Positions 1,736-2,062 of a stretch of DNA of 12,555 nucleotides are shown one piece after another. The position numbers and the translations under genes were made by a program. The stretch is from a virus (lineage: Duplodnaviria; Heunggongvirae; Uroviricota; Caudoviricetes), in the IMG/VR virus record IMGVR_UViG_2606217107_000010, positions 1-12,555 of that record, one strand, 5' to 3'. The notes under the pieces were generated by a model. The model had not been told where the DNA came from. It worked only from the letters and a program-made list of their open reading frames with translations, and ran no database searches. Position 1 is the first letter of the stretch; each line of letters starts with the position of its first letter.

Positions 1736-2062
1736 TCAGGGTGCAGAAGGACTAAAGATAAACGTTTTCTTCACGCCTTTACACGGCCTGTCCTTCTCAA
1801 ATCGCCATTTTGCCATCGCCTTTACAACCTGCTCATCAAACAGATGGTGCGGCTCTGAACGAATAAACTCAATTCGGGTGACAGTACCATCAGCACCAAT
1901 ATCAAACCTCACATCAACCCGTCCCTTTATATAATTTGCCGCTGCATAGGCCGGATATTGTGGTAATGCCTTAACCAACTGTCGGGGCATATCTATTTTA
2001 TGTTGCGTACAGCCCATAACCAGAGAAGACAACAAAATAATTAACGGAAGATTTCTTTTCAT
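1736..2062 (-). CDS. lipoprotein with TonB C-terminal-like domain (moron candidate)
   Basis: Signal peptide plus lipobox (MKRNLPLIILLSSLVMGC, Thr at +2) followed by GRVDVRFDIGADGTVTRIEFIRSEPHHLFDEQVVKAMAKWRFE, which matches the TonB_C fold motif (compare E. coli TonB GQVKVKFDVTPDGRVDNVQIL...FEREVKNAMRRWRYE). Start chosen at the ATG at 2062, 7 nt after SD GGGGA; the six-frame ORF extends to 2077. Confidence 0.8.
   Translation of the reverse strand: MKRNLPLIILLSSLVMGCTQHKIDMPRQLVKALPQYPAYAAANYIKGRVDVRFDIGADGTVTRIEFIRSEPHHLFDEQVVKAMAKWRFEKDRPCKGVKKTFIFSPSAP

Follow-up and report, generated by a model that had tools for sequence, protein, structure and literature searches.

What might a C-terminal domain (CTD) of TonB, attached to a lipoprotein signal, do for a lambdoid prophage that carries it just beyond the lysis genes? 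The question is raised by a gene at positions 1736 to 2062 of IMG/VR virus record IMGVR_UViG_2606217107_000010 (Caudoviricetes); positions 1 to 12,555 of this record, the whole stretch of DNA that was analyzed, are called the window, and all coordinates refer to it unless another record is named. An initial annotation, made from the sequence alone, had proposed that the product mimics TonB and acts as a decoy for TonB boxes. We put at about even the chances that the gene is a moron whose product, a non-energized TonB CTD at the outer membrane, competes for TonB boxes and lowers TonB-dependent entry.

The predicted lipoprotein and its TonB C-terminal domain

The gene is encoded on the minus strand (ATG at 2062 to 2060, stop codon at 1738 to 1736, the stop being included in 1736 to 2062) and specifies a protein of 108 amino acids (aa). 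Its assignment as a coding sequence draws on the open reading frame (ORF) and its translation, the Pfam TonB_C match, and the ratio of nonsynonymous to synonymous substitution rates (dN/dS). A ribosome-binding site, GGGGA (2069 to 2073, minus strand), lies 6 nucleotides (nt) 5' of the ATG. The N terminus, MKRNLPLIILLSSLVMGC-T, comprises a charged n-region, a hydrophobic core, and the lipobox LVMGC with Thr at +2. Parsed as MKRN / LPLIILLSSL / VMGC, it matches the lipoprotein signal pattern [LVI][ASTVIM][GAS]C. The signal peptide, as read from the sequence, spans residues 1 to 17 (MKRNLPLIILLSSLVMG; 2012 to 2062, minus strand) and ends in V-M-G, which places the predicted lipidation site at Cys18 (codon 2009 to 2011).

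Both the ORF and the lipobox with Thr at +2, from which the initial annotation had started, are borne out by the sequence and by an alignment of 32 relatives. The lipobox pattern is present in 26 of these, and 2 more have a Cys in a near-lipobox (SVGC and LNAC), so that a lipobox-type Cys is retained in 28/32. The remaining four, which form a Serratia clade, carry a signal peptidase I site and are therefore predicted to be free periplasmic proteins. By the rule of the Lol pathway, a lipobox with a +2 residue other than Asp directs sorting to the outer membrane, while Asp at +2 causes retention in the inner membrane. The +2 residue is Thr in the window protein and Thr, Ser, Ala, Val, or Lys in the relatives, and Asp was never present. 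The sequence thus predicts that the window protein is lipidated and sorted to the outer membrane.

The TonB CTD occupies residues 26 to 104 (1751 to 1987, minus strand), equivalent to residues 153 to 231 of Escherichia coli TonB, as judged by alignment, AlphaFold2 (AF2) modeling, and Foldseek. The domain scored well above the family cutoffs of both Pfam PF03544 (TonB_C; E = 8.7e-15, 55.4 bits versus a cutoff of 24.6) and TIGR01352 (55.2 bits versus 27.1), and TonB_C and TonB_2 were the only Pfam matches of the protein. An ungapped alignment to residues 153 to 231 of E. coli TonB contains 30 identities in 79 positions (38%), with an E value of about 1e-15 against PDB sequences. These scores lie far beyond chance and uphold the proposed TonB C-terminal fold. 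The PQYP motif and an aromatic core (F53, F75, W86, F88, and F103) are present, and the counterparts of TonB F180, F202, W213, and F230 are conserved. The protein stops 4 residues past the equivalent of TonB residue 231, with a tail (PSAP) unlike TonB residues 232 to 239.

Comparison of a predicted structure with the TonB CTD had been suggested as a check, and it returned the fold rather than its absence. The AF2 model, built on the alignment of 32 relatives, has a predicted local distance difference test (pLDDT) score of 86 overall and >95 across residues 30 to 100, and it places strand beta3 at residues 94 to 103. It superposes on the TonB CTD with an rmsd of 1.0 Å and TM scores of 0.89 to 0.94 for the best Foldseek matches (1U07, 2GSK_B from BtuB:TonB, and 2GRX_C from FhuA:TonB). 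Twelve PDB fold matches reached significance (E ≤ 0.001), every one of them to a TonB-family CTD. A search of the BFVD viral structure library gave no significant match (best E = 0.32); the fold is nearly absent from this library, and its null result is thus uninformative on function.

The pLDDT profile also delimits a tether. Confidence is low at residues 19 to 21 and high from about residue 25, and residues 19 to 25 (TQHKIDM; 1988 to 2008, minus strand) would therefore link the lipidated Cys to the folded domain. Across the family, the spacing between the Cys and the PxYP motif is 14 to 23 residues, and both the lipobox and the short tether are retained across Enterobacterales. With a tether of 7 residues, and with such spacing in the relatives, the domain is expected directly beneath the outer membrane, where TonB boxes emerge.

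The alignment to TonB begins at residue 153 and thus contains neither the transmembrane anchor nor the Pro-rich rod; the sole hydrophobic segment of the window protein is its cleavable lipoprotein signal. Full-length TonB equivalogs of NCBIfam score only 49 to 73 bits, compared with cutoffs of 265 to 448. Judged by sequence, the window protein is a member of the TonB_C domain family and not a TonB. Because it has no anchor helix and no Pro-rich rod, it can neither couple to ExbBD nor transmit force.

Distribution, selection, and genomic company

Two subfamilies of the gene occur in E. coli, the window type and the phage 21 type (gp73), with ∼71% protein identity between them. The dN/dS between the window and phage 21 orthologues is 0.12, with dS saturated at 1.6, and on this sequence comparison the gene is under purifying selection. 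The gene and its upstream region were found at a coverage of at least 80% in 1,611 of 5,426 complete E. coli genomes (∼30%), and the full-length ORF is undamaged in >1,600. Positions 1650 to 2400, which hold the gene and its upstream region, are 99.9% identical to the chromosome of an E. coli isolate from raw-milk cheese. Distant relatives (32 to 51% identity) were found in Klebsiella, Rahnella, Pantoea, Erwinia, Serratia, and one assembly labeled Salmonella. A scan of IMG/VR gave 80 loci among the matches listed, all near-identical E. coli prophage copies, and a GTDB genome scan with one peptide pattern gave 9 loci. Public annotations read "TonB family protein" in E. coli genomes, "TonB C-terminal domain protein" in phage 21, and "partial tonB-like membrane protein" for prophage CP-933N of EDL933, as quoted in the phage ev017 record. 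The gene is already annotated as TonB-like; what is new here is how its function is read, together with the recurrence of CTD-only mimics of TonB and TolA on mobile elements.

As the initial annotation had stated, the gene follows the spanin genes, at a site typical of morons. It starts 338 bp downstream of Rz (2401 to 2868; Pfam Phage_lysis, E = 7.5e-50), in which Rz1 (2463 to 2648) is embedded, and beyond it lie a convergent ylcI-like gene, an HNH endonuclease gene, and the gene for the small terminase subunit. This placement between Rz/Rz1 and ylcI/HNH/terminase is one moron trait, and a GC content of 0.42, compared with 0.53 to 0.57 in the flanks, is another. A third is the patchy distribution: some lambdoid prophages carry the gene, while others that share a flanking segment of 190 nt, such as DLP12, do not. 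The post-lysis site holds the gene in the window prophage, phage 21, JLK-2012, Stx1a phages, a Klebsiella phage, and a Rahnella prophage, and this location is kept although the lysis and terminase modules differ among the carriers. The niche had been likened to that of lambda bor. The shared position after Rz/Rz1 supports this comparison, but replacement does not follow from it: in phage 21, and in a prophage of extraintestinal pathogenic E. coli (ExPEC) integrated at icd, the gene adjoins bor/iss.

Upstream of the gene, a consensus scan found a putative promoter (2095 to 2122, minus strand) with a −35 element ATGACC (2122 to 2117), a 16-nt spacer, and an extended −10 element TGtTAGAAT (2103 to 2095), matching 9 of 12 consensus positions plus the TG. 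With 2 promoter-like sites observed in the region and 1.6 expected from shuffles, the scan alone is not significant. The block ATTGTYAGAATAAGAC forms a conserved island around the −10 element between the 96% and 71% gene subfamilies. A perfect palindrome of 17 bp, AGAATAAG-a-CTTATTCT (2083 to 2099, minus strand), overlaps the putative −10/+1 region, although its significance is doubtful. Positions 2079 to 2097 match the Fur-box consensus at 13 of 19 positions, one of only four sites in the window with at least 13. We do not claim Fur regulation, as the right half of the palindrome is absent in the phage 21 subfamily.

Outside the prophages of E. coli, several relatives are found beside bacteriocin genes. 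In Serratia, a gene for a secreted TonB_C protein is followed on the same strand, 50 to 68 bp downstream, by an E1-type immunity gene and then by a convergent gene for a pore-forming colicin of 554 to 575 aa (locus L010, 8001 to 10510; also L009, L012, L013, and L109). Besides its chromosomal form, the cassette is present in S. bockelmannii and on a plasmid-like contig that also carries KfrA and toxin-antitoxin genes. The colicin N terminus contains the sequence DDGDSMTVTG, which is kept in three alleles of 75 to 91% identity. The TonB box of colicin B is DTMVV. That of colicin M is ETLTV (PMC11658791), and the DSMTV motif of the Serratia colicin resembles such a box in sequence. An orphan Serratia TonB_C gene is also present at the same locus without the colicin (L014 and L015), in the manner of an orphan immunity gene. 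In a Pantoea metagenome-assembled genome, a lipoprotein relative lies 1.7 kb from genes for a pore-forming bacteriocin and its immunity protein.

Plasmids add a further association. IncFIB plasmids of Klebsiella and Pantoea encode a lipoprotein 41% identical to the window protein and, ∼3 kb away, a 144-aa TolA-CTD lipoprotein (LITAC-S; Pfam PF06519, E = 5e-24). In NZ_CP025459.1 (2115 to 2848; L119), a mini-TolA lipoprotein (LLTAC-K) and a secreted mini-TonB (signal VHA|I) are encoded by an operon with a 4-bp overlap. Most of the mini-TonB gene is contained in 371 plasmid records, mainly mobilizable ColRNAI plasmids of Klebsiella of 10 to 12 kb, and among the matches listed it is always part of a mini-TolA/mini-TonB pair. 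In p69-3, the single plasmid viewed whole, the operon adjoins genes for a nuclease bacteriocin, its immunity protein, and a lysis protein. Literature searches, which targeted mimics of the TonB type and not this operon specifically, returned no described function for the pair. A TolA-type protein also occurs in a lambdoid phage: mEp460_ev081 (LR597641.1, 4989 to 5417; L120) encodes, at a moron site between Q and the lysis genes, a 142-aa TolA-CTD lipoprotein (IIGC-T) that is annotated as TolA and whose C-terminal part is 34% identical to the plasmid TolA-CTD lipoprotein (E = 2e-13). In terms of sequence, it is the TolA counterpart of the window TonB mimic.

A proposed competitor for TonB boxes and its rivals

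In the proposed mechanism, a lysogenic-conversion gene product would be kept by its 7-residue tether on the periplasmic side of the outer membrane. There it would bind TonB boxes, both those of TonB-dependent transporters and those of colicins in transit through these transporters. In TonB, strand beta3 of the CTD is extended by the transporter's TonB box, which adds to it in parallel (beta-augmentation; PMC11658791). Since the window protein keeps the TonB-box-binding sheet and is missing the membrane anchor and the Pro-rich rod, it would occupy TonB boxes without delivering force. The result would be a competitive block of TonB-energized import, with the lipid anchor concentrating the competitor at the outer membrane. 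Cells with such a competitor would be expected to tolerate group B colicins, microcins, and T1/phi80-type phages that depend on TonB, and to pay for this with some loss of siderophore and B12 uptake. From the fold we infer the binding of TonB boxes and, from binding, tolerance; the lipidation, outer-membrane sorting, inhibitory phenotype, and expression timing we likewise infer.

Two lines of evidence lend this interpretation, as first put forward in the initial annotation, partial support. According to the passage of PMC9841981 that cites Howard 2001, an over-produced periplasmic TonB domain inhibits TonB-dependent iron import, and the idea of a non-energized competitor fits this inhibition. 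It also fits the bacteriocin-locus associations: recurrent bacteriocin linkage and parallel TolA-CTD mimics are as expected for an "import-blocking" accessory immunity. Given these associations, bacteriocin protection is at least as likely a role as exclusion of T1/phi80-type phages. Self-exclusion of the carrier phage via FhuA was also considered and is unsupported, as neither of the two carrier prophages inspected (phage 21 and the closest E. coli prophage) yielded a cor gene; both carry a lambda-type J (and the latter also lom).

Several observations weigh against the competitor. Contact residues of TonB are altered in the window protein, with R166 replaced by Tyr, R158 by Lys, and Q160 by Leu. 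The position of Q160 is occupied by Leu, Lys, Arg, Tyr, Thr, or Ala in the relatives and never by Gln. The TonB Q160L allele rescues the activity lost through TonB-box mutations in FhuA and colicin M (PMC11658791, PMC2533080); the Leu is thus compatible with TonB-box binding and, by analogy, may make it less selective. Several relatives, in Pantoea, Erwinia, and other genera, are solitary chromosomal genes at variable positions, away from any phage or colicin. Terminator prediction found none between Rz and the gene and none beyond the gene, whose own promoter is a consensus match only. PADLOC-DB contained no matching defense model, only a chance-level match at E = 0.012, and a literature search found no functional study of, or experiment on, the window protein or any relative. 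Finally, the gene is present in ∼30% of E. coli, including ExPEC with a phage-21-like prophage at icd. ExPEC lineages depend on TonB and siderophores for virulence, and a strong constitutive inhibitor of TonB should be costly to them. Expression must then be low, conditional, or late.

We note that phage 21 (OL657228.1, 21967 to 25416; L099) and the icd-integrated ExPEC prophage (NZ_CP018979.1, 4258856 to 4262305; L100) carry sitABCD together with iss/bor and the TonB-CTD gene. This TonB-independent Fe/Mn ABC importer could offset reduced TonB-dependent iron uptake. The window-type prophage has no sitABCD, and the co-occurrence is limited to one phage lineage and is a lead only.

The shared strand with the lysis and terminase genes, and the lack of a predicted terminator from Rz through the gene or after it, would also suit a lytic accessory of the late operon, expressed under Q antitermination only and acting in the dying cell rather than in lysogenic conversion. 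Such a product could close TonB-dependent entry to competitors during maturation or loosen TonB-mediated envelope links before the spanins act. PHROG 1267, which matches the window protein end to end (E = 1.3e-41), appears to agree, being labeled "Rz-like spanin" and filed under lysis. This label conflicts with the TonB_C fold, however, and we thus read it as a misannotation, probably an error propagated from the lipoprotein signal and the position. The prophage already has a full Rz/Rz1 pair, and the product is a globular TonB_C domain rather than a Pro-rich o-spanin. Homologues on plasmids, in colicin cassettes, and alone on chromosomes are found without a lysis cassette, and the low GC content relative to the flanks and the gene's own conserved −10-like block are moron-like. 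We therefore regard a purely lytic role as unlikely. Equally open to objection is an envelope or virulence lipoprotein acting outside TonB transport, for example by binding peptidoglycan or OmpA/Lpp and altering the envelope or serum resistance as Bor/Iss does. In its favor, the TonB CTD is reported to contact peptidoglycan, Lpp, and OmpA, the gene adjoins bor/iss in phage 21 and ExPEC prophages, and the solitary Pantoea and Erwinia homologues resemble ordinary envelope genes. The window protein has no similarity to Bor/Iss, though, its Pfam matches being confined to TonB_C and TonB_2, and an envelope role leaves unexplained both the recurrent colicin/bacteriocin linkage and the pairing with TolA-CTD mimics; we consider it improbable.

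A different contact could give the same phenotype as competition for TonB boxes: the protein might form a heterodimer with the CTD of host TonB, or associate with some other partner of TonB, and thereby keep TonB trapped at the outer membrane. In its favor, the domain is 38% identical to host TonB, and dimers are seen in crystals of TonB CTD fragments (the matches include 1U07, 1IHR, and 1QXX). The model, in contrast, best fits the monomeric, receptor-bound conformation (2GSK_B and 2GRX_C), and the title of PMC3005593 reads "The TonB Dimeric Crystal Structures Do Not Exist In Vivo." We view such trapping as quite improbable. The "partial" in the CP-933N annotation could suggest a functionless, decaying fragment of a captured tonB, an explanation effectively refuted by the selection and conservation data. 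The low dN/dS and saturated dS between subfamilies, the acquired lipoprotein signal kept across genera, and the full-length ORF in >1,600 E. coli genomes are incompatible with decay, and 38% identity to E. coli TonB indicates that any capture was not recent.

If the window protein is indeed a non-energized competitor, it may not stand alone. A broader proposition, which we hold tentatively and place somewhat below an even chance, is that the window gene belongs to an unrecognized class of exported, CTD-only copies of TonB or TolA on prophages, bacteriocin plasmids, and colicin cassettes, which would give receptor-independent tolerance to whole groups of toxins and phages. Members of this class would be either anchored to the outer membrane by lipid or soluble in the periplasm. 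The agents tolerated would be group B colicins, microcins, and TonB-dependent phages in the case of TonB mimics, and group A colicins and filamentous phages in the case of TolA mimics. Were the proposal of a TonB-box decoy correct, a simple protein able to dampen every TonB-dependent import, and not just a single receptor, would be encoded by ∼30% of the complete E. coli genomes analyzed here, by phage 21, and by Klebsiella bacteriocin plasmids in their hundreds. The reading of colicin, microcin, and phage sensitivity in natural isolates would change accordingly. The finding would also bear on the phage-therapy host range of TonB-requiring phages, on the uptake of siderophore-antibiotic ("Trojan horse") conjugates, and on how cells balance the fitness gains of acquiring iron against those of being protected. 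Mimicry, a mechanism so far shown only with laboratory constructs, would be added to the repertoire of superinfection exclusion and immunity.

Prophage setting and comparison with known systems

The window represents the late region of a prophage of the lambdoid group. This region reads on the minus strand, and by megablast the window falls among Stx-type and related E. coli lambdoid prophages. In the reading direction, the late region begins with genes for a DUF968 protein (11615 to 12532) and the Q antiterminator (11235 to 11612) and continues with a DNA methyltransferase gene (8146 to 9195). Between Q and the methyltransferase lies a two-gene insert of low GC content (0.28 to 0.36) on the plus strand (9823 to 11211), whose products are a DUF6731 protein of 313 aa (E = 1.7e-10) and a hydrophobic protein of 147 aa; PADLOC and NCBIfam gave no match for either. 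The insert occupies the position of the stx genes in Stx phages and is a candidate moron or defense cassette. Three tRNA genes follow on the minus strand (7847 to 8096): Arg-tct, Arg-tcg, and a tRNA with a CAT anticodon whose counterpart in a related E. coli prophage (L011) is annotated as tRNA-Ile. Between this cluster and a gene for a homologue of the anti-adapter IraM lies the STnc100 small RNA (7581 to 7770, minus strand; Rfam, 132 bits versus a gathering score of 47). The IraM gene (7220 to 7555, plus strand; NCBIfam, 162 bits versus a cutoff of 121) is situated in an island with a GC content of 0.32 to 0.34, on the strand opposite the late genes, and we read it as another moron. A SASA esterase gene (5103 to 6974) is followed by those for a phage-21-type holin, a DUF1327 protein, and a lysozyme (3511 to 4044), after which comes Rz.

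The ∼190 nt 3' of Rz (2212 to 2400) are better conserved with phage 21 than is the other sequence upstream of the TonB-CTD gene. Partial query matches, mostly at this end, occurred in 4,154 of 5,426 E. coli genomes, some of them in prophages that do not carry the TonB-like gene. In the DLP12 region of C43(DE3), for example, the 190-nt block lies between iss and ylcI with no TonB-like gene. Translation of the aligned sequences showed that the start of a short ORF at about 2170 to 2230 (MVEETG...) is common to phage 21 gp72. The block may be a recombination junction or a regulatory element. Rfam identified no RNA family in 1500 to 2600, even at E ≤ 1.

Among known systems, the window domain has the same fold as the CTD of E. 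coli TonB (residues about 150 to 239; 1U07, 2GRX, and 2GSK). The window protein differs from TonB in carrying a lipoprotein signal, with a predicted tether to the outer rather than the inner membrane, and in having neither the N-terminal helix nor the Pro-rich spacer. Lambda Bor/Iss, also a small lipoprotein, occupies the same niche between Rz/Rz1 and cos/terminase; its sequence is unrelated and its gene is on the opposite strand, and the two genes are found side by side in phage 21 and ExPEC prophages. An o-spanin of the Rz1 type is likewise a lipoprotein encoded near the i-spanin gene. We rejected this identity because the window gene is separate from Rz and its product is globular, whereas the true Rz1 is embedded in Rz.

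Similar in proposed outcome are Cor (phi80, N15, HK022, and mEp167) and Llp (T5), small phage outer-membrane lipoproteins that act on FhuA from the periplasmic side and so prevent phage entry (bioRxiv 10.64898/2026.03.26.714494). By analogy, the window protein would also silence a TonB-dependent transporter from the periplasm. Pfam, NCBIfam, PHROG, and PDB fold searches revealed no similarity to Cor or Llp, returning TonB-type families and the mislabeled PHROG 1267 only. Cor and Llp are specific to FhuA, with Llp acting allosterically, whereas a TonB-CTD mimic would target the TonB box, a feature that every TonB-dependent transporter shares with the group B colicins.

The mini-TonB and mini-TolA proteins of bacteriocin loci are, like the window protein, CTD-only copies of transducers with an export signal on mobile elements. 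The mini-TonBs of p69-3 (35% identity to the window protein over 71 residues) and Serratia (33% for P0196) are predicted to be soluble periplasmic proteins and, unlike the window protein, not lipoproteins. The literature searched describes no function for any of these mini-TonB and mini-TolA proteins. The experimental precedent is engineered: in the account that PMC9841981 gives of Howard, Herrmann, Stratilo & Braun 2001 (J Bacteriol 183:5885), periplasmic TonB fragments likewise present a TonB domain uncoupled from ExbBD. Those fragments, as described there, are soluble, over-produced laboratory constructs, whereas the window gene is a natural one on a mobile element, with a shorter and, by prediction, lipid-anchored product.

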